The position numbers and the translations under genes were made by a program. Of a stretch of 64,000 bases of DNA, positions 33,652 to 46,937 are shown piece by piece. This DNA comes from Candidatus Levyibacteriota bacterium (GTDB lineage Bacteria > Patescibacteriota > Microgenomatia > Levybacterales > UBA12049): NCBI GenBank assembly GCA_016214555.1, contig JACROF010000003.1:930-64929 (forward strand). The letters are read 5' to 3'. Each line of letters starts with the position of its first letter. Positions within the stretch are counted from its first letter, which is position 1. A model generated the notes under the pieces. That model was given only the letters and a program-made list of their open reading frames with translations, had not been told where the DNA came from and made no database searches.

Positions 33652-35076
33652 ATGCCTGAAAATGCTGAAGTAAATCCCGTTGTTGAACCAAAAGCTGAAT
33701 TTGACGTAGGCTTCTTTACCATAAATTTTCTCTCTACAGACCCTCATGGCTTTGAGGTTCAGACAAGACACAGCCTTCCCCGCCGTGACAGAGATCCTGT
33801 GACAGGATTGCCTGCCACTCCTCTTGCACTCAACCAAGAACAAAGAGGAGACCTCCGACGAGGCATGGGAACAGAGGCATTCTTTGCTCTTCCTGGAGAT
33901 TTCCCTCATGAAAAAAGGCCAGATGTTAGAAGACTTTTTAGCCTTATAGATCAAACAGCAACGCTTAAGGAGCAAGCTGGAACAACTGAACAACTGCAAG
34001 AAAAATTAATGGAGATGAGAATGCTTCGTAAAGAACTAAGGCCGTTATTTAAAGAATATAATCTTCGAGATAGATTAGGTCTTAAAGTTGGGACTCGAAA
34101 TGTGCAGAAAGTTGGAATACGTAAAATTGAACGGGCTGGAAATAAGCTTCTTATTGATACAAGACCTATTAGTTATCCTGTCTATGCCGTGGCAAGTAGC
34201 CCCGACGACACTGAAGAATCTCTGGATTTAGGCGCTGTTACAGGCACAGCAGGTGTTCTTATTACAGCAGATAACAAAATGATTCTTCAATACAGAAGCA
34301 AAAAAAATAGTCCTTATGGTGATATGCCAGGGGCGAGTTTTGCTGGCATGCTTGATGCTCGTTTCAAAAGAATAAAACTAGAAAATGGCAAAGAACTCAA
34401 AACAGGTGTTCTTCAAGATGTAGATGATACATATATCAAAGAAAGTTCAGCTGAGGAACGATTTCAGGAAATTGCTATCGTTGGTGAAGACGTAACAGAT
34501 TTTAGGATTATCGGCGAAGCTCGTGATCATGTCCGTGAACATGACGAATTTCTTTTGTTGGCAAAAACATCTCTTACAGCGCGTGAGGTGGCAAAAAGAA
34601 CTGAAAACGCTCCCCGAAGTAGCAATGCACGGAAATTAAATGGCCAGGGAGACTTTCATTTTGAAGAAAATTTTCTTGTGATAGATGCCACACCTGAGGC
34701 TATTGAGACCCTTGTAACGCAAGTCAAATGTCCTCGCCCACCTACCCATGATGCAGCTTTTATAGCTGCAGGCTATAACATGATGCTTGAAAGAACACAG
34801 GAAGAAGGCGGTGGGCTGAAAGCAGCTAATGAGTGGCTTGAAAGGATGCAAGAGGCAACTCGTCAAAACTACGAGGATATGAATAAAATAGTCAAGGAGT
34901 TCTATGAACAACATCCTGAAAAGCTTGAAGATAATAAGCCTGGCAAACCCAAACGAAATCCTAATGCATATGAACCCTACTACTTTCCAACCGAACAAGG
35001 GCTACCAGATCTCATGAATGAACTTTATAGAACTGGACTTATGACCAGACCCGAGACAGATTCCTCCCCAAGCTAG
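33652..35076 (+). CDS. Hypothetical protein (474 aa) inserted between rplA and rplJ
   Basis: Long ORF at about 47% GC with no recognisable motif. Confidence 0.5.
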   Translation: MPENAEVNPVVEPKAEFDVGFFTINFLSTDPHGFEVQTRHSLPRRDRDPVTGLPATPLALNQEQRGDLRRGMGTEAFFALPGDFPHEKRPDVRRLFSLIDQTATLKEQAGTTEQLQEKLMEMRMLRKELRPLFKEYNLRDRLGLKVGTRNVQKVGIRKIERAGNKLLIDTRPISYPVYAVASSPDDTEESLDLGAVTGTAGVLITADNKMILQYRSKKNSPYGDMPGASFAGMLDARFKRIKLENGKELKTGVLQDVDDTYIKESSAEERFQEIAIVGEDVTDFRIIGEARDHVREHDEFLLLAKTSLTAREVAKRTENAPRSSNARKLNGQGDFHFEENFLVIDATPEAIETLVTQVKCPRPPTHDAAFIAAGYNMMLERTQEEGGGLKAANEWLERMQEATRQNYEDMNKIVKEFYEQHPEKLEDNKPGKPKRNPNAYEPYYFPTEQGLPDLMNELYRTGLMTRPETDSSPS

Positions 35077-35142
35077 CCTTGACTCTCACGAGTAATCGTA
35101 CTATACTCACCCACAAGAATAAGCTGCCGAACTGGCAGCTTT

Positions 35143-36684
35143 TTGCATATTATGTCATCAAAAATAGAACTCGCCTCGTCTCCTCACCTTCCGCCTGAGA
35201 TGCAATCAGGGCAAAGTTATGACGGAAATATTATTCCTCGTAGATTTTTACCGCTTGATCCCAATGGTATGACTGGTCGAGATTTACAAATATATGCACA
35301 AGGATTCAAGGCTGGAGATGGTCAAAGACCCTCACCTACTCTTGGAGAGAACGACATACCACTCTCCACACACACAAGGCGTCAATTTGGATATGAAGCA
35401 GCGCTTGGACTGACATTACTTGCTGGAGCTGGAGGTTTATTAGCAAGATCGCTCTATGATACTCTCACAAATGTCAGCGCTCCTGATTTTGCTCAAAAAC
35501 TATTGGATAAAAAAGCTGACACAACTGCCCTAAATGGTGAGACAGTCTATCATGATATCCTTCCGGGAATGGTTGGGACTCACGGCTTCTCAGTACTATT
35601 TAATCCTCTTGAGCTTTCCGCATTCTCAGACAGAGCAGGAAAAAATTATAACTGCGTTATCTCGACAACAACCCTTGGTGAGGATGGTAGGGAAAAAGTT
35701 GAACCCTGCATCGTCTACAACAACGGAAATTCTCTTAAAATCCCTTACAGTTTTCAGATCTCTCTTGAGGGACAACAACGCGCATCATACATACCAATCG
35801 ACTGGTATCCAATCGACGAGACATCTTCAACTGTTGTCACTTTTCATACCGCACAAGCTGGTCAACAGCCTGATGAGGAACACGCAAGAAGATACACTTT
35901 TATGCCAGACGACTACACAAAAATCGAATGGCCCACATCAAATACAGTTGTCTCAATCATAAAAGAAAACCATGCCAGAATGCCGCAGGAATTAGAAAGT
36001 TCACTGCAAAATTTTTTCTCAAGAGTTGGAGCAGACTACACCCCACAAATATATCTACGCGGTAATGAATGGTCAAAAAATGGAAAACTCTATACACTAA
36101 CTGATAATAGTTCACGCCTTGTGCTTGGAGAATCATTGGGATACCTAGATGAAAAAGAGAGATACTATCATCTCAATGCAGCATGGGGAGAAGTTATCTT
36201 TGACAAAATGCTTGCATCATTCCCCAACACTTCCACCAGTGTTATTATAAGCACTTTTATAAAAACACACCGCGACGTATTAAGAATGAAAGATGAATAT
36301 GAGACTAATGAAATAGGAAGTCACGGAGCAGCAACGTATACTGAAGCACAGAATCCATATTTTAAGCTTTTTTTAGATCTTGATAAAATATTTAAACCTC
36401 AACGAAATAAAAATGGTGATCGCTACTATTTTACTGATCCAAGAGAAGAGTTTGGGAGAATACTTGCCATAATGATGAATAATCCAAGCGAACTTATTTT
36501 TCTTAAAGATCAATCTTCTCGTGAGCCTGCAGAATGCATAAAAAAACTCTGTGGGGCAATAAGGGCTGCTATTAACGAAGAACTGGTCGCTAACAAAGAA
36601 GACTCACTTGAGATTCTTAACAATCTGTTTCCTGATGCAAGCTCATCTTCAACATTTCTCCAATGGTTTTTCCAAACACAATAA
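35143..36684 (+). CDS. Hypothetical protein (513 aa) inserted between rplA and rplJ
   Basis: Long ORF with no recognisable motif. Confidence 0.5.
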   Translation: MHIMSSKIELASSPHLPPEMQSGQSYDGNIIPRRFLPLDPNGMTGRDLQIYAQGFKAGDGQRPSPTLGENDIPLSTHTRRQFGYEAALGLTLLAGAGGLLARSLYDTLTNVSAPDFAQKLLDKKADTTALNGETVYHDILPGMVGTHGFSVLFNPLELSAFSDRAGKNYNCVISTTTLGEDGREKVEPCIVYNNGNSLKIPYSFQISLEGQQRASYIPIDWYPIDETSSTVVTFHTAQAGQQPDEEHARRYTFMPDDYTKIEWPTSNTVVSIIKENHARMPQELESSLQNFFSRVGADYTPQIYLRGNEWSKNGKLYTLTDNSSRLVLGESLGYLDEKERYYHLNAAWGEVIFDKMLASFPNTSTSVIISTFIKTHRDVLRMKDEYETNEIGSHGAATYTEAQNPYFKLFLDLDKIFKPQRNKNGDRYYFTDPREEFGRILAIMMNNPSELIFLKDQSSREPAECIKKLCGAIRAAINEELVANKEDSLEILNNLFPDASSSSTFLQWFFQTQ

Positions 36685-37496: not shown

Positions 37497-37892
37497 ATGG
37501 CAAAACTAACAAATGATGAATTAATGAAAGCAATTGAAGAGATGTCTGTTCTCGAACTTTCTGAGCTTGTTAAAGCTCTTGAAGAAAAATTCGGAGTTTC
37601 TGCAGCAGCTATGGCTGTAGCAGCAGCTCCAGCATCAGGCGCAGCAGCAAGTGCTGATGCAGCCCCAGCTGAAGAACAAACAGTCTTCAATGTTATTTTG
37701 GCTAGCGCTGGCGCTAACAAGATCGCTGTTATTAAGGCTATTCGAGAACTCGTTCCAACACTTGGTCTTAAGGAAGCAAAAGATCTTGCTGACACAGCAC
37801 CAAAAGAAGTTATGACACAAGTCAACAAAAAAACTGCTGATGAGGCAAAAGAAAAACTCACCGCAGCAGGAGCAACTGTTGAATTGAAGTAA
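37497..37892 (+). CDS. rplL: Ribosomal protein L7/L12
   Basis: N-terminal dimerisation helix, an Ala-rich hinge, and a C-terminal domain ending [17 protein letters not shown]. Confidence 0.9.
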
Positions 37893-37894
37893 CA

Positions 37895-37946
37895 AAAAAC
37901 CTCGTCCTCTCTAAAAATAATTTATTTTGCGGCCGAGGTTTTTTTG
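37895..37946 (+). terminator. Terminator-like hairpin after rplL
   Basis: AAAAACCTCG ... CGAGGTTTTTTT enclosing a long loop. Confidence 0.45.
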
Positions 37947-38769
37947 TGGTCATAACGTATACCTTAGGCTGATTTAATAATCTAATCATTTATCCAATAT
38001 TTCTTATTTTAATAAAAAAGATGATCATAAGATTTTAGGCAAGCTCAAAAGACTTGTAAAGAATTGATACTCTAAAAAGACATAAAACTCTCCCAAAAAG
38101 GAAAATACTACACCAATAAGAGGCCACATTGCATAAGAGTCGCTTCGAAAACGCGAAATATAGCCCAATTCCCTCTTTTGAAACAGTGTTTTGACAATTA
38201 TTTTGATTCTGATGTCATATGATGTAGTCATTTTTCGACTTTTTGAACGATTCAAAACATATATACAATTTTTTCACGTCGGATAATATTCTTGTAAGAA
38301 TAAGACCGCGACTTGATCGAACAATTCCCGAATGAGTATAAATATTGTTCTATAGAATAGAACTCATGAAAATTCCAAAAATCCAAAAAAATGATTTTTG
38401 TACCAGCTGCCAAAAAATCCCAATACTTTCATAAAGTTTTGGAAAATTAAGACAAAAATTTCAAAAAAAGAAAAGTTTTCCTGTGGATATCCCCAAATAA
38501 CTCTCTTACTCCAAGCTCCTCCCCTATAGCCTTATAATGGGAGACTATAGGTAAAACAAGAGTTAATAAAATGGCTATAGTAAATTACTGTAGGACTATT
38601 GTCCAATTTCTCCCTTCCAATATAGGATAAGACCCTTTAGATACCTTCTAGGTCATCCTACGCCCTTAAAATATTATTTTGAGGCTAAGAGCTTTTAGTA
38701 TTAATGTTTCTAAAGATATCTTGACCAATAAAAAATTGTGATATATACTACATGTAATACGCGCAATTT

Positions 38770-38796
38770 AGCAGCTCCAAAGAGCTGCTTTTTTTG
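38770..38796 (+). terminator. Orphan rho-independent terminator
   Basis: AGCAGCTC-CAAA-GAGCTGCT followed by T7. A TTGACC-17-TATACT promoter lies at 38720..38748. Confidence 0.55.
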
Positions 38797-39016
38797 TATG
38801 AAAAGCCTTAACTACTCTGATAAAACACATAAAATAAAAATATGAAGATACAAAACGTAACATCCATAAGAAGTGTCAGGTATTTTCGATATAAAGATGT
38901 ACCAAAACTTTTTCTTATTAACCTTTGTGAAAGACCAATAGCAACTCTAAATCTAATAATTTTTCTCATTTGGGTACTTTTGTCAATTATAACCAGCTAA
39001 ACCACCAAACTCCCCC

Positions 39017-39077
39017 TTGACACTAATGTTCTAGTTTGTTACTTTAGTGATAGGTAATTATTACAATGATTACCTAT
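39017..39077 (+). promoter_or_regulatory. Promoter (TTGACA-17-TACTTT) plus a 9-bp-arm inverted repeat operator upstream of the excisionase-type HTH gene
   Basis: ATAGGTAAT-N10-ATTACCTAT at 39050..39077, 18 nt before the ATG. Confidence 0.45.
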
Positions 39078-39094
39078 GAGTTACTCTCCAGGCT

Positions 39095-39310
39095 ATGGCT
39101 GATCAAAAGATATCAATCAACGACCTACCAGATCTACTTACTGTACGAGAAGTTGCAGAAGTTTTACGCGTCTCTCCTCTTACCATCAAACGCTGGGGGA
39201 AAAGGGGTAAATTACCAGCAATTCGTATCAACAGCAGGGGGGACAGGCGCTACAAAAAAGAAGCAGTTTTTTACCTCCTAGGTATTCAGGAAAAAAGTGG
39301 GACTATCTAA
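39095..39310 (+). CDS. Excisionase/MerR-superfamily helix-turn-helix DNA-binding protein
   Basis: LLTVREVAEVLRVSPLTIKRWGKRGKLPAIRI matches the excisionase-family HTH pattern. Confidence 0.6.
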   Translation: MADQKISINDLPDLLTVREVAEVLRVSPLTIKRWGKRGKLPAIRINSRGDRRYKKEAVFYLLGIQEKSGTI

Positions 39311-39385
39311 ATAGATAGAAAGCTAAACCTCATTATTCCTCCATTTTTACTATATCAGACATATTACTAAGATGATCACTTTGCC

Positions 39386-39413
39386 ATAAAAAAAGCCCCG
39401 GCAAAGCCGGGGC
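39386..39413 (-). terminator. Rho-independent terminator for paralog 1
   Basis: GCCCCGGC-AAA-GCCGGGGC with a T-run on the minus strand. Confidence 0.7.
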
Positions 39414-39417
39414 AAAA

Positions 39418-40086
39418 TTACCACATAGAGAAAACCCAACAACCAGGACCAGAAAGCCCTTGTATGTCTTTCACAGACAAAAAGTAGGCAGAGACTGCCT
39501 CTTCTATCCTGCGATAACCCTGCACCTCCTCGATGGTAACATCCTCAGGAGCGCAATAGGTGATGTCAATTGAGTGAACATTGCCATCCTGAAACTCCAG
39601 AGAGCTTCTCAGATCAGTAATAATTTCCTCAGTGAGAGCTGAGGCCCTTTCTTCTGGAAAATAGACCTCAAAGAGCGACTCTGCAAAGACCCTAAAATCC
39701 TCCTCAAGCTGCTCAAGACCGCAGTCGAGAAGACCCACTGCCGGTGCAAAGCACAGCTCCAAATACCCTTCAGAGTTACCCTGCAACATTTCATTGGTGA
39801 TCACGATCAAGTCGCCTGGAAAGACGAGCTGACCATATTGACCGTTGCCAAAACTCAGTGGCTCTTTACCATCAAGCTTTGCCCAAGCAAGGCAGGCAAC
39901 AGACATAGGATTTTCAACAAGAAATTCAAGGGAATTCCCTACATAAAGATCGTGTCCATCGCAAAACGGACAAGACAAAGCCTGGATCTCTTTTCCGCTC
40001 TTTTCAAAACAAAAGACAGAACGACGATCAGCGCTAAGCATCTCAGGTCCTTTTCTACTAAACCAATGCGGGCAATGCTGCCGCAT
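39418..40086 (-). CDS. Paralog 1 of a four-gene family of unknown function, with an N-terminal Cys pair region
   Basis: Shares PGDLIVIT, ITY and a C-terminal GPGCWVFSMW with paralogs 3 and 4. TAGGAGT RBS. Confidence 0.55.
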   Translation of the reverse strand: MRQHCPHWFSRKGPEMLSADRRSVFCFEKSGKEIQALSCPFCDGHDLYVGNSLEFLVENPMSVACLAWAKLDGKEPLSFGNGQYGQLVFPGDLIVITNEMLQGNSEGYLELCFAPAVGLLDCGLEQLEEDFRVFAESLFEVYFPEERASALTEEIITDLRSSLEFQDGNVHSIDITYCAPEDVTIEEVQGYRRIEEAVSAYFLSVKDIQGLSGPGCWVFSMW

Positions 40087-40169
40087 ACTCCTATCAATGC
40101 TAGTTGACAGAGAGCTTTCTAGGCATAAGATTGCCTACAAAGCCCGCTACCATATGTAGCTATAGAAAT

Positions 40170-40197
40170 AGAGCCTAAAGATCACTCTTTAGGCTCT
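40170..40197 (-). terminator. Terminator for paralog 2 (perfect 11-bp stem)
   Basis: AGAGCCTAAAG-atcact-CTTTAGGCTCT. Confidence 0.6.
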
Positions 40198-40208
40198 AAA
40201 GAGAAATA

Positions 40209-40922
40209 CTAACAAACTAATTGAGTCGAATAGAACATCTTGATGATCATATCCTCATCATTGGTAGTCGAGACAAAGCCAGGAATGTTCCTGATGGCAG
40301 AATGCCCACCTGGCCCAACTAAATAGGCAATACCAATGACAACGTCAAACAACCTCTCCTCTTCAGGTTGTTTTTCTAACAAATCAATCATGGTTTTAGG
40401 ATGCATGTAAAAAATACTATATTGAACTTCCTCACCATCATGCAGTCGACATGCATCCTCAATAAGCTGAGGATTCATGTCGCCCAAAAGCGAAAGGCCA
40501 ATTTCATCCTGATTGTCAGCATGACTAAAGAAAAAAGTGAGAGTTCCTGAAAGACCTTCAGAAAATGAAAGGGAGGTAGCTTTGAGCAGCTCAGGATCAA
40601 ATCCTATTACCTCGCCTACTGACAGAATCACCTCAAGATTATCATTAATCAACACCGGACTCTCATCGTGCTCCACTCTCAACGTAACTGGGAAATTGAA
40701 AGGATTCTCAAATATAAATAGTGGAATATCATGCACGACAAAAAAAGGAGCACTTACCAAAGGTGACTTGAATATCTGGTATTCGCTTCCATCATTATCA
40801 TATGACCTCACTGTATAGAGATCCTCACTCGATGGGCTTGTTCCAAGGTGTGGGCTGCTATGAACTAAAATACGTGGAACAGCAAGGAGCGGAGATACTT
40901 GAGATGGAATCCAGTTAAACAT
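40209..40922 (-). CDS. Paralog 2 (divergent) of the same family
   Basis: Shares TFFF and YSIFY...LL blocks with the others. Has its own TTGAGG-18-TATAAT promoter and a GGAGG RBS. Confidence 0.5.
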   Translation of the reverse strand: MFNWIPSQVSPLLAVPRILVHSSPHLGTSPSSEDLYTVRSYDNDGSEYQIFKSPLVSAPFFVVHDIPLFIFENPFNFPVTLRVEHDESPVLINDNLEVILSVGEVIGFDPELLKATSLSFSEGLSGTLTFFFSHADNQDEIGLSLLGDMNPQLIEDACRLHDGEEVQYSIFYMHPKTMIDLLEKQPEEERLFDVVIGIAYLVGPGGHSAIRNIPGFVSTTNDEDMIIKMFYSTQLVC

Positions 40923-41030
40923 AACATCGGCCTCCTTCTTGGTAGACTCTATGCCTCAACTCTTGTTAATGTGCCAAACTGGTTTTTATTATAACAAAAA
41001 GCTGTTTGACACCTCAACTATAGGATCGGT

Positions 41031-41060
41031 AAAAGAAAACCCGACCCTAAAAGGGCCGGG
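41031..41060 (-). terminator. Terminator for paralog 3
   Basis: CCCGACCC-TAAAA-GGGCCGGG hairpin with a T-run on the minus strand. Confidence 0.6.
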
Positions 41061-41066
41061 TAGTAA

Positions 41067-41651
41067 TTACAGCTCATGAAGTTCTGAAATGAGCGGGGCG
41101 ATTGCAGCTGCAAAATCATTGCGAAGCTTGGCTAGATACAACTCGTTAAGATATGTAATCGTCACATCAACTGAGTCGTATATCCCTTCGTGGAAATGAG
41201 CTGCAATGAACACTTTCGCACCCGCAGCCGGATCATCAACTGTGCCTGTCAGAGCAAAACACTGCTCGATATGCCTCTCTGCCACCTCAAGGGCACTTTC
41301 GAAATCTTCCCTGTTGATCCGAGGTCGGAATGAAAAAGTCACATCCCCGTGGTAGTATCCTCGTTGACCAGACTCTGGAACAAGCTGCTCGCTTAGCACT
41401 CCTACAATCGCATGTGGAGCGATATCTTCATATTTTTCAACTTCGGTTCCATTATGAAGAACCACTACATCTGTTTGATGCTTCTTGATAGGATTTGGCA
41501 ATGCAAGAGTAGGCGTCTGGCCAGGTGGTACAATGACAACTAGTCTCGAACCGACTTCTACGTCTGGAATAACGAGAACATCCCTACTCTCCCCATCCAC
41601 TTCAGCAATAATGCCTAACGTATCAAAAACATCTCCATCGACACTGATCAT
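41067..41651 (-). CDS. Paralog 3
   Basis: Aligns with paralog 4 across its length (VDGESRDVLVIPD, LHNG, VTFSFRPRINREDFESALEVA, VDVTITYL). AGGAG RBS. Confidence 0.6.
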   Translation of the reverse strand: MISVDGDVFDTLGIIAEVDGESRDVLVIPDVEVGSRLVVIVPPGQTPTLALPNPIKKHQTDVVVLHNGTEVEKYEDIAPHAIVGVLSEQLVPESGQRGYYHGDVTFSFRPRINREDFESALEVAERHIEQCFALTGTVDDPAAGAKVFIAAHFHEGIYDSVDVTITYLNELYLAKLRNDFAAAIAPLISELHEL

Positions 41652-41675
41652 GAACTTCTCCTCTTTTGATCTTTA

Positions 41676-41696
41676 TCAGATCGGACATCGATCTGA
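41676..41696 (-). promoter_or_regulatory. Palindromic operator-like element in the paralog-3 5' region
   Basis: TCAGATCG-GACAT-CGATCTGA, between a TTTATAAG (-10-like) element and the RBS. Confidence 0.45.
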
Positions 41697-41740
41697 CACC
41701 TTCTTATAAATGAGCCTGATGATGATAGCATATTTTTAAC

Positions 41741-41781
41741 AAAAAACCAAAAAAAATCCCGACCCCATGGTGGGATCGGGA
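41741..41781 (-). terminator. Terminator for paralog 4
   Basis: TCCCGACCCCA-TGG-TGGGATCGGGA with a T-run on the minus strand. Shares a 25-nt block with 42546..42570. Confidence 0.65.
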
Positions 41782-41788
41782 CGCAAAA

Positions 41789-42439
41789 TTACCAAACAAA
41801 CATGGAAGCGGGACCAGTAAAGCTAAAAGGCGGATCGCCTGGTAGCTTGAGTTTTTCTTTGAGAAGCTTTACATACTCTTCGTATGTGAGATATGTTACC
41901 TCGATGCTTATGCCATAGACCTCAACTTCACAAATACGCTTGATTTCCTGTTTTAGATCTATGAGGTGTAAGACACCAAGGGTCTCGTAATATGACTCAA
42001 GAGCAGCCTCAAGAATCGTATGCTGACGAGAAAGTGCTGCTTCGTTGACATGAGGCTTAAACGTGAAAAGAATCTTCCCTGAGTAGGGATTTTTACTCTC
42101 GCCACTTGATCGCTTGTCTTTCATAAGCATCCCAGGAGTAATCACAACTATATCTCCCGGGGTGACACTCTCTCTCTCAAAAATCACAATGCCATTATGT
42201 CTTACCTCAACACTACAAGTCTTGAGCGTTGGATTGAAAAGCTCAATTTCTGGAACCTCTTGATCTCCTACAATAATTGCAGGCATCTGACTCGGAGGCT
42301 TGTCTGGATCAAGACAAAGAATTGCTACTTCCTCACCCCCAACCGTCGCACCTATGGTGATGAGCCGCTGACAGAGAGCCAGAAATGGCAATCCATTTGC
42401 CTTAAGATATTCACCCTGTTCATAAGGAGACATCAACAT
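41789..42439 (-). CDS. Paralog 4
   Basis: The start is trimmed to the ATG at 42437..42439, which has a GGAGG RBS; the ORF-track start (42451) is a TTG. Carries the family motifs PGDIVVITPGML and a C-terminal GPASMFVW. Confidence 0.6.
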   Translation of the reverse strand: MLMSPYEQGEYLKANGLPFLALCQRLITIGATVGGEEVAILCLDPDKPPSQMPAIIVGDQEVPEIELFNPTLKTCSVEVRHNGIVIFERESVTPGDIVVITPGMLMKDKRSSGESKNPYSGKILFTFKPHVNEAALSRQHTILEAALESYYETLGVLHLIDLKQEIKRICEVEVYGISIEVTYLTYEEYVKLLKEKLKLPGDPPFSFTGPASMFVW

Positions 42440-42463
42440 GATTTCCTCCAATACGCTGCTATA

Positions 42464-42484
42464 TCAGATCGACAATCGACCTGA
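42464..42484 (-). promoter_or_regulatory. Second copy of the palindromic operator-like element
   Basis: TCAGATCGA-CAA-TCGACCTGA, preceded (minus-strand sense) by GCTCATTTACAATG (-10-like). Confidence 0.45.
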
Positions 42485-42550
42485 ATCATTGTAAATGAGC
42501 TTGGAAAGTATAACATAATATTACTATAAGTTAAAGTTTAGATAAAAAAC

Positions 42551-42605
42551 CAAAAAAAATCCCGACCCCCTTTCGAGGGCCGGGTGCGTCCCGATATATC
42601 GGGAC
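42551..42605 (-). terminator. Tandem hairpin terminator
   Basis: A 10-bp stem with a GAAA tetraloop (CCCGGCCCTC-GAAA-GGGGGTCGGG on the minus strand) followed by T8, plus the perfect palindrome GTCCCGATA|TATCGGGAC. Confidence 0.7.
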
Positions 42606-42616
42606 AGAAATGCAAG

Positions 42617-42838
42617 TTAGTCGTCGTCGCCGAAATCATCGCCATCATGGCGATCCGGCTGCCAAGCCCCAGAGCGCGGCTTGTTGCGATACAACCAAGC
42701 GTTTCTGCAGACTTCAAGCTGAAGAGAGTCACCGCGTTGACGAAGCTGCCTGAGGGCATCTTCGTGCGCGCTCCTTGACATCCGAATGTAATCATCCTCT
42801 GTGAGAGAATGACCACTGTTGAACGAATGCAAGTCCAT
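42617..42838 (-). CDS. Small protein with an acidic C-terminal tail; GC-rich (about 60%)
   Basis: ATG with an AAGGGGGAAG RBS and a strong terminator. No recognisable family. Confidence 0.4.
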   Translation of the reverse strand: MDLHSFNSGHSLTEDDYIRMSRSAHEDALRQLRQRGDSLQLEVCRNAWLYRNKPRSGAWQPDRHDGDDFGDDD

Positions 42839-42872
42839 ACTTCCCCCTTTTTGGGCTAGATCGACACGGAGA

Positions 42873-43070
42873 CTACGGCTTCATCGCCGCCTCAGCGGCA
42901 CGCTGGTAGTTTGGAAACCAGATCGTACCGGCGTAGCTTTCCAAAGCCGTTTTGATCAGGCTCGGATTGCTCCGGAAAGTCTCAACAAGAGAGGCGAATG
43001 CCTCGCTTGGTTTCATTCGCCTGGTCCTTCTTCCAGACGTGCGACATGAAAAACCTTTATCGATCCTCAT
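42873..43070 (-). CDS. Possible small ORF in the GC-rich segment
   Basis: ORF only. Overlapping ORFs on both strands make the coding assignment here unreliable. Confidence 0.2.
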   Translation of the reverse strand: MRIDKGFSCRTSGRRTRRMKPSEAFASLVETFRSNPSLIKTALESYAGTIWFPNYQRAAEAAMKP

Positions 43071-43118
43071 ATCCCCTCCTGCTTTTTACTTGCACCGTTG
43101 CAAGCCTGCAAAAAGAAG

Positions 43119-43148
43119 AGCCAGGGAGCGCAGAAGCGCTCCCTGGCT
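43119..43148 (-). terminator. Perfect 13-bp hairpin
   Basis: AGCCAGGGAGCGC-AGAA-GCGCTCCCTGGCT with a T-rich tract on the minus strand. Confidence 0.4.
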
Positions 43149-43863
43149 GTAACCGCTACTTGCGGCCGGAAGACTGCGACGTCTGAGACTGCGGCGAACT
43201 ACCGCTCGCTGCCGCATTTGCTGCGGCAAGCATTCGCCCTTCGGCGATTCGATCGAGCCTGATCTGTCCGCGTCCGATTGGACGCAGGCCAAACGGCGAC
43301 TGATCCCGAACGGAATGATAGCTCTGTCCAGACATATGTCCTCCTCGTCACGCTGCAGTGGACTCCCAGTGGAGACCACGCCCTCAAGACTACTGTGCTA
43401 GCCACGAAGTTTGTTGCTCCGTGAGCCTACCCAAAATAGCCTCATTACTCCCTGAAAAGAATATGTCTGCGTTTGGGTCATTAAAAACCCAGTCGCGAAA
43501 TGAATCGCGCATCACAGACTCCGCCTCATCCGGCGGTGGCAATCCTCTTATCGTGACAATATTGTCTAAAAAAAGAATGTTTTGCCCTCCTTTCTGGACA
43601 AAGAGAAAGCGTTGGTGTCGTTGGTCAGCAGGTGAACAATAGACCTTTCGGACTTATTGATGCAAAAAATTATGCTGAGCTGACCAACGACCACAAAACC
43701 TGAACCATCAGGACTTATGGTCGCTGATCAGACAAACCAACAGACGACTAATTTGTAAAAGAACTCTTATGAATTCCTTATTTCATAACTCTCTAAAGAG
43801 AGCTTTGAAATAAGGGCGGTCCGACGAATCGGACACGCCCAAGAATAGAGCTGAAGCCTTGTA

Positions 43864-44358
43864 TCAGCAATGAATCACAACGACACTCTCAGTGGTGAGT
43901 AGCCTGATAGGCTCCCGAAGCTGATGAGCTGCCGTGGTAACGATGAACGTCACCTGACGAACATGCTTTGTTACCCGAATCTCAGGCAAAACACGCTCGT
44001 TTTCCAAAAGCAAGACGTCTTCAGTGACCGTCACGGTGAACACCGCGACCTCATGGTTGCTCTCGACTCGAATCGGAATTCCGTTGAACACCCTGGGTTC
44101 TCGCGGTCGAGCATAGCCCGTATCAGGAATGATACCAGAGCCGTGCTTGTCAATTACGACGAAGACCGATTGGTCTCGAACATTCCAAACGCCAATCGCG
44201 TGCAGCTGATCCCTAGGGACCGTGACTAGATAGATTTCCTCGTTAGCATTGTTTGGATCATCGATGGGAATCATCGCTCTCGGCGATCCTTCGCCTTGAG
44301 CAAAAAAGATTCCAATCGAGACTCCGTTATCAGAACGATTACTAAACCCGGAGGACAT
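43864..44358 (-). CDS. Hypothetical protein in the GC-rich segment
   Basis: ORF followed on the minus strand by a roughly 10-bp hairpin at about 43811..43838. Confidence 0.35.
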   Translation of the reverse strand: MSSGFSNRSDNGVSIGIFFAQGEGSPRAMIPIDDPNNANEEIYLVTVPRDQLHAIGVWNVRDQSVFVVIDKHGSGIIPDTGYARPREPRVFNGIPIRVESNHEVAVFTVTVTEDVLLLENERVLPEIRVTKHVRQVTFIVTTAAHQLREPIRLLTTESVVVIHC

Positions 44359-44604
44359 ACCAGTGCTCCCTTCGTTGCTACAAACAAGGTGGCTAACGCC
44401 CTTTTGGACAGATCAAAAGGCCATTAGCCATATATTCAGAACTATTAATGTGCAATTACAGCACAAGCTGTAAATAGGTCGTAAGTATAGCATATTTTAT
44501 ATCTAAAATCAACTATAGGATGTTTGCCGAGAGGCATTTGAGCTCACTTCCAAAGGGAAATGAAGTCCAAATGACCTCCCGGCTTGCCTCATTTGAGGCT
44601 GCTA

Positions 44605-45459
44605 CTAAAAGGTAGCATGAGAAAAAAATGCGCCATCAGCGCCATCAAGATTGTTGTGAGCGTGAGTTCGTCGCAACTTTAACACTTTGCCTACATAGGC
44701 GATTTGTTGCCGCACGAGCAAAAAGGTATGTAGGTCCTTACAAGAACTCAGACCTTTCTGTGCAGCCGCACTGAAGACCCTAAGATCTGCGGTGGTGCGA
44801 CCTCTCAAGCAAAGCTTTTCCTGATCGCTCAGCTCAGGAAGACGCCCTCCCTTCAGGTGGTAAAGGAAAGCCTGTGCTCCAAGACTTGAGGCATACACGA
44901 TCGTATTCGATCGTTGAGGCTGATCCACCACACCATCAGCAATCAACTCGCCAATGAGGTCGTTGGTTGTGAGGCCAAGGTACGAACGCGCATTGGCCTC
45001 AGAGCCCAAGATAGCACAAAGTCGGGAATTCCGACCTTCAATACCTTCCAGGCTCTCGCTCTGGAGAAGACGAACTATCTCCCCCGGATACGAAATGAGG
45101 TTGCAAAAACCAAGACTATAGCTACCAAGGTCTCCAAGGGAGACCTGAGAGCATCGATCCGGGCTGCAAAGAGCAAAACGATGTGTTCCCTTTTGAGGAA
45201 CGTATGTCGGCGAACATGGTGCACTTGCCGACGATTGCTTCCCCAACGCTGCGCTATTTTGGAAGCACAAAGCTGCGCCCCCAGATTTTTTCACGTCAAC
45301 TATGACAACCGGACTTCGACGAGGATTTGACACCTCCCATACCGAAAGCCCGTTGAGTGTTTCATGGTGTTTTGCCTCCCCTGATGCGAACCGAATGTCT
45401 ACTCCGGGTACCAAACAGTTCATTTTTCCACCTTTCAGGACGGATAAGCCTCCCGTCAA
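44605..45459 (-). CDS. Hypothetical protein in the GC-rich segment
   Basis: 284-aa ORF at about 55% GC with no recognisable motif. Confidence 0.35.
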   Translation of the reverse strand: MTGGLSVLKGGKMNCLVPGVDIRFASGEAKHHETLNGLSVWEVSNPRRSPVVIVDVKKSGGAALCFQNSAALGKQSSASAPCSPTYVPQKGTHRFALCSPDRCSQVSLGDLGSYSLGFCNLISYPGEIVRLLQSESLEGIEGRNSRLCAILGSEANARSYLGLTTNDLIGELIADGVVDQPQRSNTIVYASSLGAQAFLYHLKGGRLPELSDQEKLCLRGRTTADLRVFSAAAQKGLSSCKDLHTFLLVRQQIAYVGKVLKLRRTHAHNNLDGADGAFFSHATF

Positions 45460-45671
45460 ACAGTCTAGCTCAGAAATTTCTTTTTCTGAAAACTCCTTTC
45501 TCTATAAAAGTGAGCTGACTGTCGACTCGCTCTCTACAAAATAAAGAGGGAGCCAACAACCAGATACACAAAACTGTTCTCAAGGCATTCTTTTTGTATT
45601 AATGTGCTAAAGGATAGTGATTGTAAAACAAAAATCAAGCCTACGTCAACAGATGCCTTGTGTGAGACACA

Positions 45672-46553
45672 CTAAACAGTCCTGTGATATTCGGCTTGAT
45701 GATCTTTAATAATGCTATCAACATCGGGATTGTTCATATGAGTTTTGATAAATGCCAATGTCTCTTTCGGATTTTGAGTGTTCACAAAAACATTAGTTCC
45801 TACTTCAAATCCACCTAACGTCTTTTGACGAGGAATGATCCTTAGATACCAATCTCCTCCCGGATAAATATAAAAATTATAAGGAAAATCGCTATTGTAA
45901 CGAAGGTTAAAAATAGTAATAAGTGATGAGAGGACACCTGCAGCATCTGAAAGCTCGTCATCCGTGACCTCTCCAAATAATCTACCCGACTTTTTAGGAG
46001 CGATCCACACTTCATCTGGCCATACCGAATCAGATGGACAAAAAACGCTAAAATGCTGTGACTGATAACCGGTCGGCATATCATGTACCACTGTTTGAAG
46101 TCGAGGAATATCTAAATAAACCTTTTCAGGAATCACTGCAATTTGCGTATGAGAATGAGGAATACTCTCTCCTGCTTTTTCTCCGTGATTGTGAAAAATA
46201 TATACCTGACCTGCGTGACTATGCTCATTATAGCGATGGCGATATGTCTGGAGTATTCGCTGTGTATGCTCAACGGGAAAAGCGTCAAAGGACACATGGT
46301 GATCTGGAGTATCAATCACTAATTCATGAATTGGCGCAAAAGGAAATTTATTGGGAACAACGCGTACTTCCCATGCATCATCTCCAGTCTTCCCTCCAAT
46401 CCGATAGAGTTCTGTTTCATTACTTTCCCTACCAGGACAAAAAGGACACGCAGGCTCAGTTCCGTTGGCGACATCGGGTCTTTTTGCTCTTCTAGGGGCT
46501 GAGATCACCCATTTTTTAGATTGCTGATTTTTTAGAAATTGAAACTCGTCCAT
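45672..46553 (-). CDS. galT: Galactose-1-phosphate uridylyltransferase (HIT superfamily)
   Basis: CPFCPG zinc motif and the HxH active site IPHSHTQI. Confidence 0.75.
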   Translation of the reverse strand: MDEFQFLKNQQSKKWVISAPRRAKRPDVANGTEPACPFCPGRESNETELYRIGGKTGDDAWEVRVVPNKFPFAPIHELVIDTPDHHVSFDAFPVEHTQRILQTYRHRYNEHSHAGQVYIFHNHGEKAGESIPHSHTQIAVIPEKVYLDIPRLQTVVHDMPTGYQSQHFSVFCPSDSVWPDEVWIAPKKSGRLFGEVTDDELSDAAGVLSSLITIFNLRYNSDFPYNFYIYPGGDWYLRIIPRQKTLGGFEVGTNVFVNTQNPKETLAFIKTHMNNPDVDSIIKDHQAEYHRTV

Positions 46554-46637
46554 ATTCTTAGTATCAGATAAATTTATGTAAAGTGCAATAAAAAAGACTA
46601 GTAAAAGCTAGTCTTTTTTTAGCCTTAATTATGAAGT

Positions 46638-46937
46638 TTATTTTTTCTTATAAAGTCTATCCAGTCTTAAAAGACGAACTCCAAAATAAACAACCAAAGC
46701 AATAACAAGAAAATCAATCGTGGTGCTAATAAAACTCCCCCACATAATTTTTGATGAGCCAAGCTTGATATATGCATCGTCAAGATTTCCTGCAAAACCC
46801 AAAACAACGCCCAAAAGAGGATTAATAATATCAGTAACTAATGATGCTACTACCTTTGAAACTGCACCTCCTAAGATAAATCCAACCGCCAAGCCAATAA
46901 CGCCTTGTTCGCGTATAAATTCAATAAATCCTTTCAT
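46638..46937 (-). CDS. mscL: Large-conductance mechanosensitive channel
   Basis: MKGFIEFIREQGVIGLAVGFILGGA is the MscL N-terminal signature. Confidence 0.8.
   Translation of the reverse strand: MKGFIEFIREQGVIGLAVGFILGGAVSKVVASLVTDIINPLLGVVLGFAGNLDDAYIKLGSSKIMWGSFISTTIDFLVIALVVYFGVRLLRLDRLYKKK

Follow-up and report, generated by a model that had tools for sequence, protein, structure and literature searches.

A lineage-restricted family of divergent tandem paralogs in the galT–HTH_17 slot of a Candidatus Levybacteria genome

Tandem runs of small, divergent and fast-evolving cytoplasmic paralogs are familiar as orphan immunity arrays, which sit downstream of Rhs, contact-dependent inhibition (CDI) or LXG toxin genes. 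Self-contained promoter–gene–terminator units of foreign composition are known from phages as morons, which benefit the host through, for example, superinfection exclusion or anti-defence; Hendrix and colleagues are said to have described them as such units of deviant composition in lambdoid prophages. In the Candidate Phyla Radiation (CPR/Patescibacteria), whose genomes are tiny and in which roughly half of the genes have no known function, lineage-specific expansions of orphan open reading frames (ORFans) occupy variable islands. Here we describe four minus-strand genes, p1–p4 (the p family), that lie in tandem in a metagenome-assembled Candidatus Levybacteria genome (CPR/Microgenomates). 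The window, the whole stretch of DNA analysed, comprises 64,000 nt of the 131-kb contig JACROF010000003.1, and the four products are recorded in NCBI as 'hypothetical proteins' HZC02_01670 to 01685.

The p genes resemble orphan immunity arrays in being a run of small, divergent, fast-evolving cytoplasmic paralogs, but they are separately terminated, have no linked toxin or secretion gene, show a nonsynonymous to synonymous substitution ratio (dN/dS) of ~0.3 and are confined to one slot in one small clade. With phage morons they share the unit anatomy (the promoter of p1 excepted), the deviant composition and an accessory function, whereas they are flanked by core chromosomal genes (rplJ/rplL, HTH_17 and a galT-like gene), have no phage relatives and display flank-like synonymous divergence. 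Like the ORFan expansions of CPR variable islands, they are hypothetical, restricted to a narrow clade and located in a hot spot that holds differing genes among relatives; what sets them apart is that the slot and the structure of the units can be followed explicitly here, as can the stepwise rise in copy number from one to four. The N-terminal sandwich predicted for p1 and p4 finds its best structural match in the MSP/PapD-like immunoglobulin (Ig) fold (the MSP domain of VAP, the SPD-2 domain of CEP192 and pilus chaperones), usually a protein- or peptide-binding module, although these matches are weak, and the p family is unrelated to those families in sequence and differs from them in its CPxC..H knuckle and in the alpha/beta part added at the C-terminus. 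What the present evidence shows is another lineage-specific expansion of fast-evolving paralogs: the family itself is new, its kind is familiar, and a new kind of system is not indicated.

Homology and distribution of the p family

Judged from their sequence profiles, p1–p4 are homologous, being joined through distant relatives present in single or double copy. A preliminary description of this DNA had proposed a tandem array of four divergent paralogs with shared colinear motif blocks, p3 and p4 being the closest pair, and the blocks are indeed visible in alignments. In the all-versus-all comparison that it had suggested as a check, p3 and p4 gave the sole clearly significant pairwise match (BLASTP E 3e-9, 27% identity across 128 residues, shuffle z 15.9). 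The pairs p1–p2 (p 0.003) and p1–p4 (p 0.01) were marginal in the shuffle test, and the similarity of the other three (p2–p3, p2–p4 and p1–p3) was at chance level. Profile–profile comparisons of small subfamilies recovered the same colinear segment at E 5e-4 to 0.02, and separate hidden Markov models (HMMs) of three groups of proteins (p3, p4 and P0007; p2 and P0008; p1, P0004 and P0006) each matched P0009/P0013 at E 1e-5 to 1e-7. Because the subfamily models meet in these bridging relatives, the homology extends to all four proteins. An HMM of the distant members placed all eight proteins of the p1–p4 type at E 1.6e-6 to 3.9e-3, ahead of ~3000 background open reading frames (ORFs), the best of which scored 0.69. 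The array of paralogs is thus upheld, directly for p3 and p4 and through the profiles of bridging relatives for all four; the similarity is not insignificant, and the family is no known housekeeping protein.

The p proteins constitute a lineage-restricted accessory family with no match in any library tried, in agreement with the earlier impression that it was not recognisable. Searches of Pfam, NCBIfam, PHROGs and PADLOC with p1–p4 and the other island ORFans returned chance-level matches at most, the PHROG scan of p3 and p4 yielding two weak matches only, both to PHROGs of unknown function, and a profile search of PDB sequences with the family gave no E-value below 0.65. An exhaustive HMMER search of 1.84 billion representative proteins at a cut-off of E<=1e-3 returned 13 matches, namely the five queries, five true further members and three repeat proteins (e.g. 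Calx-beta arrays) that were judged spurious. Word-indexed protein searches gave one member (P0004) and, later, three others (P0014, P0016 and P0017). The family is extremely rare, with about a dozen members among the 1.84 billion proteins. When JGI metagenome contigs and IMG/VR were scanned with subfamily alignments, nothing emerged beyond one already known contig, and no relatives were found in IMG/VR; the contig of the window itself is present in one Logan assembly.

All family members found come from a small subclade of Levybacteria and occupy the same slot next to rplJ–rplL, with HTH_17 on one side and a galT/HIT-like gene, likewise core and convergent to it, on the other. In many related genomes the order is rplJ–rplL–HTH_17, followed directly by the convergent galT/HIT-like gene; at least 15 other genomes have galT directly beside HTH_17, whereas 6.3 kb separate the two in the window. 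Four family genes lie in this interval in the window, three (p3-, p2- and p1-type, with p4 absent) in the syntenic locus L003, two distant paralogs in each of L005 and L089, and one paralog with a DUF218 gene in each of L006 and L090. The slot is identical in genomes whose galT proteins share just 68–70% identity. In further species it holds unrelated genes or nothing, and a family member was present at none of 80 species-representative HTH_17 loci. The HTH_17 gene encodes a 71-residue protein of excisionase-like look that matches HTH_17/MerR families, generic HTH/excisionase PHROGs and PADLOC mad1. It adjoins rplL in hundreds of genomes and has at least 381 relatives, the best 80 of which are 78–96% identical, and it is a conserved core Microgenomates gene rather than an element-borne excisionase.

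Unrelated inserts of 1.5–2.8 kb were observed in the galT–HTH_17 slot of other Levybacteria-like genomes, namely L008 (1469–3102), L009 (8216–10935), L035 (8207–10985) and L036 (8210–9770). That of L008 carries a relative of the 65-residue island protein of the window, and the L008 and L009 inserts are also enriched in GC.

Predicted fold and rate of evolution

The family proteins are soluble and acidic (isoelectric point (pI) 4.1–5.0, net charge -9 to -23). Their sequences contain neither a signal peptide nor a lipobox, and a membrane segment is likewise absent (maximum Kyte–Doolittle 19-residue window <= 1.53). Structure prediction, another check proposed at the outset, gave AlphaFold models of p4 (pLDDT 74) and p1 (pLDDT 77) that share their architecture, with an identical order of elements: a beta-sandwich of ~90 residues, an extra strand, two long helices, a strand, a helix and a disordered tail. 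The models suggest a beta-sandwich of Ig-like (MSP/PapD-like) type with an alpha/beta C-terminal part. A Foldseek search of PDB returned nothing below E 1e-3, the best matches being the SPD-2 domain of CEP192, MSP domains and PapD-like chaperones. The second paralog of L005 has a weak PapD_C match, and the best matches of a fold search against BFVD were uncharacterised giant-virus proteins (E 5e-5, TM-score ~0.35).

The motif C-x12-CPxC-x2-H is kept in p1 orthologues, and CxxC..H is found in distant members, while p2–p4 lack it; it is a candidate metal knuckle, zinc-ribbon proteins holding four metal ligands by knuckles of the CPxCG type. Because it is common to the p1 orthologues and the distant members, the motif is ancestral and was lost in p2–p4, contrary to the first suggestion that the cluster was an addition in p1. 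That cluster had been given as CxxW...CPFC, of which the CPFC part is real. Translation of p1 most likely starts at ATG 40041, because the ATG at 40086 reads ATA in L002 and L003 and the stretch aligns to their structured leader; the CxxW part is therefore probably untranslated and outside the protein.

Trp is the last residue of p1, p4 and P0004, whereas p2, P0008 and the island ORFan x164, like the x164 orthologue of L003, have hydrophobic-x-Cys at the C-terminus. These shared ends of island proteins may be a signal or a degron; the C-terminal tails in the p1 and p4 models are predicted to be disordered.

The fast divergence of the paralogs is evident. Between the window and L003, family proteins are 37–49% identical and island proteins 37–51%, compared with 84–99% for flanking proteins; between L005 and L089 the amino-acid identity is 62–69% for the family and 93–100% for the flanks. 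The family changes at 5–10 times the rate of the flanking genes. In the L005–L089 comparison, the cleanest pair, the family has dS 0.60–0.84, dN 0.19–0.24 and omega 0.28–0.32, versus dS 0.37–1.26, dN 0.02–0.07 and omega 0.04–0.14 in the flanks. A 96%-identical pair gave pN/pS of 0.37 and 0.23, and several diverged genomes retain intact orthologues, for which omega is 0.1–0.37. The family is under purifying selection that is 3–7 times more relaxed than that of its neighbours, and no signal of gene-wide positive selection was seen in the dN/dS of the pairs compared. Since these ratios are well below 1, they indicate relaxed purifying selection and do not demonstrate diversifying selection, so the initial view of a diversifying locus is not borne out.

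The similar dS of the family and the flanks in L005 and L089 implies that the genes were inherited along with their flanks. On the same ground, allelic replacement was rejected as the source of the divergence; the window–L003 pair is not decisive on this point because its synonymous sites are saturated. Promoter and leader blocks show 82–87% DNA identity, above that of the coding sequence. The p3 and p4 units share the terminator–promoter junction and the 5' untranslated region (5'UTR) hairpin at matching spacings of 803 and 788 nt, which points to duplication of the whole unit. The junction common to both units is also conserved in L003, and function, not recent gene conversion, therefore explains its identity. 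The 25-nt identity reported earlier between two terminator blocks is real, but spans 26 nt (41741–41766 = 42544–42569), the second coordinate having been off by 2.

Origin and possible use of the island

We give an even chance to the following explanation: the p family is a lineage-restricted accessory family whose island in the galT–HTH_17 slot encodes binding modules with a likely role in conflict or interaction. An ancestor would have taken up one or two copies from a donor of higher GC content, and three to four copies would then have been reached by duplication of entire promoter–gene–terminator units, the p4 unit being an extra copy. The foreign origin is suggested by composition: the GC content is 0.46 in the island versus 0.39 in the rest, and that of third codon positions (GC3) is 0.37–0.60 in the window island and 0.55–0.70 in L089, versus 0.21–0.35 in host genes (0.22–0.32 where the window island is set against neighbouring genes). 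The donor-derived composition would since have been partly ameliorated. The N-terminal MSP/PapD-like Ig sandwich would once have been held by a CPxC..H metal knuckle, lost in p2–p4. From the models, p1–p4 may be intracellular protein-binding modules, each paralog with a different partner, and their most likely use would be in a conflict or interaction setting, for example in binding or blocking phage or host factors.

Several points weigh against this explanation. The Foldseek matches to the fold are weak (E 1e-3 to 0.1, TM-score <= 0.45, 6–14% identity) and an Ig-like sandwich is generic, while an omega of ~0.3 fits plain relaxed constraint and an arms race equally. Foreign origin is argued from composition only; the analysis revealed neither a donor nor an integrase or attachment repeats. 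The preliminary description had assigned each gene its own promoter, and promoter-like sites do precede p2, p3 and p4, but no consensus promoter was recognised in the sequence upstream of p1. The census of the family, moreover, relies on assemblies from a poorly sampled lineage.

A bolder version, which we regard as distinctly unlikely, would make the whole island an undescribed CPR-specific conflict system of acidic intracellular binders with separate targets, which block phage or host-cell factors and gain new specificities by whole-unit duplication at a safe-harbour slot. The locus is in any event a clean, traceable case of gene gain in a tiny CPR genome, in which foreign-looking self-contained transcription units accumulate in a single slot flanked by convergent core genes and one family expands there from one copy to four. 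Should binding to phage or host factors be borne out, the proteins would offer an entry into the conflict biology of uncultured episymbionts.

The immunity-array, integron, diversity-generating retroelement and prophage readings each miss at least one defining feature. If the genes were an orphan immunity array, every paralog would counteract its own polymorphic toxin from a competitor. Such a role would suit a tandem run of divergent paralogs whose products are small, acidic and cytoplasmic and outpace the flanking proteins in their evolution. The preliminary description had leaned towards this or a host-interaction role, yet no toxin, effector or secretion domain (Rhs, CdiA and LXG genes included) lies within +/-10 kb in the six loci, the window and five related ones, and the proteins carry no signal peptide or membrane segment. 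Cognate toxin domains (Rhs, CdiA, LXG and WXG) were sought in vain among the island proteins and among the genes tabulated for L001, L003, L005, L006 and L089, a search that a wholly novel toxin could escape. Neither do p1–p4 match a known immunity-protein family in Pfam, NCBIfam or PADLOC, in which the other island proteins likewise have no match; dN/dS is ~0.3, and the slot is fixed and vertically inherited rather than a toxin-linked cassette region. Genes for a toxin, an integrase, a reverse transcriptase or phage functions are lacking in the neighbourhood, which leaves the immunity-array reading unsupported and, in our view, very unlikely. Integron arrays, in which an IntI integrase stands beside promoterless cassettes separated by attC sites, were rejected, as no integrase occurs among the called genes within +/-10 kb, no attC was found, and the hairpins between the genes are those of T-run terminators, with promoter-like sites after them. 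A diversity-generating retroelement was also rejected: template and variable repeats are lacking (direct repeats in 37800–46700 reach at most 33 nt, the longest being in regulatory DNA), and no reverse-transcriptase domain was found among the neighbouring genes.

That the island is the remnant of a prophage or mobile element, with the genes as moron-like cargo, is unlikely, even though every gene comes with a ribosome-binding site and a terminator, a promoter-like site precedes most of them, GC and GC3 are unlike those of the host, an excisionase-like HTH_17 gene abuts the island and the best BFVD fold matches (E 5e-5) are uncharacterised viral proteins. HTH_17 is a core Microgenomates gene, and the locus contains no integrase, phage structural gene or meaningful PHROG match. 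A blastn search of the island against 50,697 phage records gave no match, IMG/VR held no relative, and the equality of family and flank dS speaks for long vertical residence. Flanking repeats are not convincing either: the candidate attachment-site repeats were only 20–27-nt matches at 78–80%, the chance level in AT-rich DNA, and were rejected. Alternatively, the p proteins could be exported or surface-exposed by a non-classical route, possibly through their C-terminal Trp or Cys tails, and interact with the host cell of the episymbiont. The episymbiotic lifestyle of CPR bacteria, including this lineage, the frequency of Ig-like folds in adhesion proteins and the shared Trp and hydrophobic-x-Cys ends are in line with this; the absence of a signal peptide, lipobox, membrane segment and adjacent secretion genes, as well as the predicted disorder of the tails, makes it very doubtful. 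Finally, most pairwise similarities are not significant and no known domain was found, as would be expected if the p genes were functionless decaying ORFs and the 'family' an artefact of composition. This last reading is extremely improbable and largely refuted by the intact orthologues in several diverged genomes (omega 0.1–0.37), the conserved ribosome-binding sites, promoters and terminators, the clean profile bridging against background ORFs and the confident, concordant structure predictions.

Gene signals, the rest of the island and its flanks

The four minus-strand ORFs are present where they had been reported, and each has, as described, its own ribosome-binding site and hairpin terminator: a Shine–Dalgarno sequence precedes every start codon, and a T-run hairpin was found for all four (Table 1). 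These signals support the view of the array as a set of separate, monocistronic units. Translation of p4 from TTG 42451 (220 aa), as first annotated, is unlikely; spacing to the ribosome-binding site favours ATG 42439, which is most likely the start. The region contains 26 terminator-like sites, compared with 8.1 +/- 2.9 in shuffles (~3x). The promoter-like sites of p2, p3 and p4 contain an extended -10 element (TGnTATAAT/TATACT/TATCAT); that of p2 sits in a block (40964–41024) that is 87% identical to L003, and that of p3 overlaps the T-run of the p4 terminator. The hairpins of the p1 leader show some compensatory changes between the orthologous loci (40042–40160 in the window, 5615–5734 in L003 and 95–212 in L004), with folding z-scores of -2.4 to -3.3 versus shuffles. 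The opposite strand of this block reads as a near-consensus promoter, TTGACA-16-TAAGAT (40104–40131), directed antisense into p2.

Table 1. Features of the galT–HTH_17 interval (window coordinates; CDS, coding sequence)
Feature	Position	Strand	Basis or remark
HTH_17/MerR-type gene	39095..39310	+	right-hand slot boundary
p1 terminator, intrinsic, 8 GC pairs and T-run	39395..39413	-	terminator scan
p1 CDS, 207 aa from ATG 40041, pI 4.1	39418..40041	-	ORF open to ATG 40086 (222 aa)
p1 leader/upstream block, three hairpins	40042..40160	-	conserved in L003, L002, L004
p2 terminator, 13-bp stem	40169..40198	-	terminator scan
p2 CDS, 237 aa, pI 4.4	40209..40922	-	
p2 promoter-like site, TTGAGG-18-TGnTATAAT	40988..41017	-	promoter scan
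p3 terminator	41039..41061	-	terminator scan
p3 CDS, 194 aa, pI 4.6	41067..41651	-	
p3 5'UTR hairpin/palindrome, CAGATCG..CGATCTG	41671..41696	-	second copy upstream of p4
p3 promoter-like site, TTGGTT-17-TGcTATCAT	41722..41750	-	read by hand
p4 terminator	41756..41782	-	terminator scan; 3' half and T-run in the 26-nt identical block
p4 CDS, 216 aa from ATG 42439	41789..42439	-	public records 214 aa from ATG 42433
p4 5'UTR hairpin	42459..42484	-	81% identical to p3 copy
p4 promoter-like site, TTAACT-16-TGtTATACT	42507..42534	-	promoter scan
Terminator upstream of p4	42561..42584	-	terminator scan; end of preceding small-gene unit
73-aa small island gene	42617..42838	-	orthologue in L003
65-aa small island gene	42873..43070	-	orthologue in L003
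Strong terminator after 59-aa gene, 13 pairs, 10 GC	43119..43148	-	terminator scan
59-aa small CDS	43156..43335	-	79% identical to L003; below 60-aa ORF cut-off
Reading frame of ~87 codons	43390..43653	-	46% identical to L003; no obvious start codon
x164, ORFan, 164 aa	43864..44358	-	outside p family; promoter-like TGnTATACT at 44512–44484
x272, ORFan, 272 aa, 9 Cys, basic	44605..45423	-	outside p family; promoter-like site 45649–45620
galT/HIT-like gene	45672..46553	-	left-hand slot boundary

The island (39311–45671, ~6.3 kb) comprises about ten ORFan genes, all in the same direction as galT, and its best-conserved product in the comparison with L003 is the 59-residue protein. The GC-rich interval 43071–43863, at first sight 'ORF-less', was considered as a large non-coding RNA, an idea rejected because conserved small coding frames are located there. 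Rfam recognised four tRNAs in the whole window and nothing credible in 37800–45800.

Between the rplL terminator and HTH_17 lies an ORF-free, AT-rich stretch of ~900 nt (37894–38798, GC 0.30–0.33), whose alignment to L003 shows 72% identity and 24 gaps. Translated matches are spread over all six frames, suggesting that it is conserved but non-coding. Parts of it are also conserved in L008 (38278–38551) and L005 (38482–38558); it has no Rfam match and carries a plus-strand terminator-like hairpin (38770–38789). The stretch is a candidate for an uncharacterised RNA or a decayed gene.

The sequence upstream of HTH_17 (39004–39094) is 90% identical to L003 and 76–86% identical across many Microgenomates. 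Within it, ATAGGTAAT-(10 nt)-ATTACCTAT forms an inverted repeat, a possible operator for autoregulation of this core HTH gene.

Proteins of 474 and 513 aa are encoded between rplA and rplJ (33652–36684). Neither has a significant Pfam match, the former showing a sub-threshold match to MREG (E 0.002). In L003 different genes, for a 284-aa protein and a methyltransferase, are found between rplA and rplJ, and the ribosomal-protein cluster therefore has more than one variable slot.

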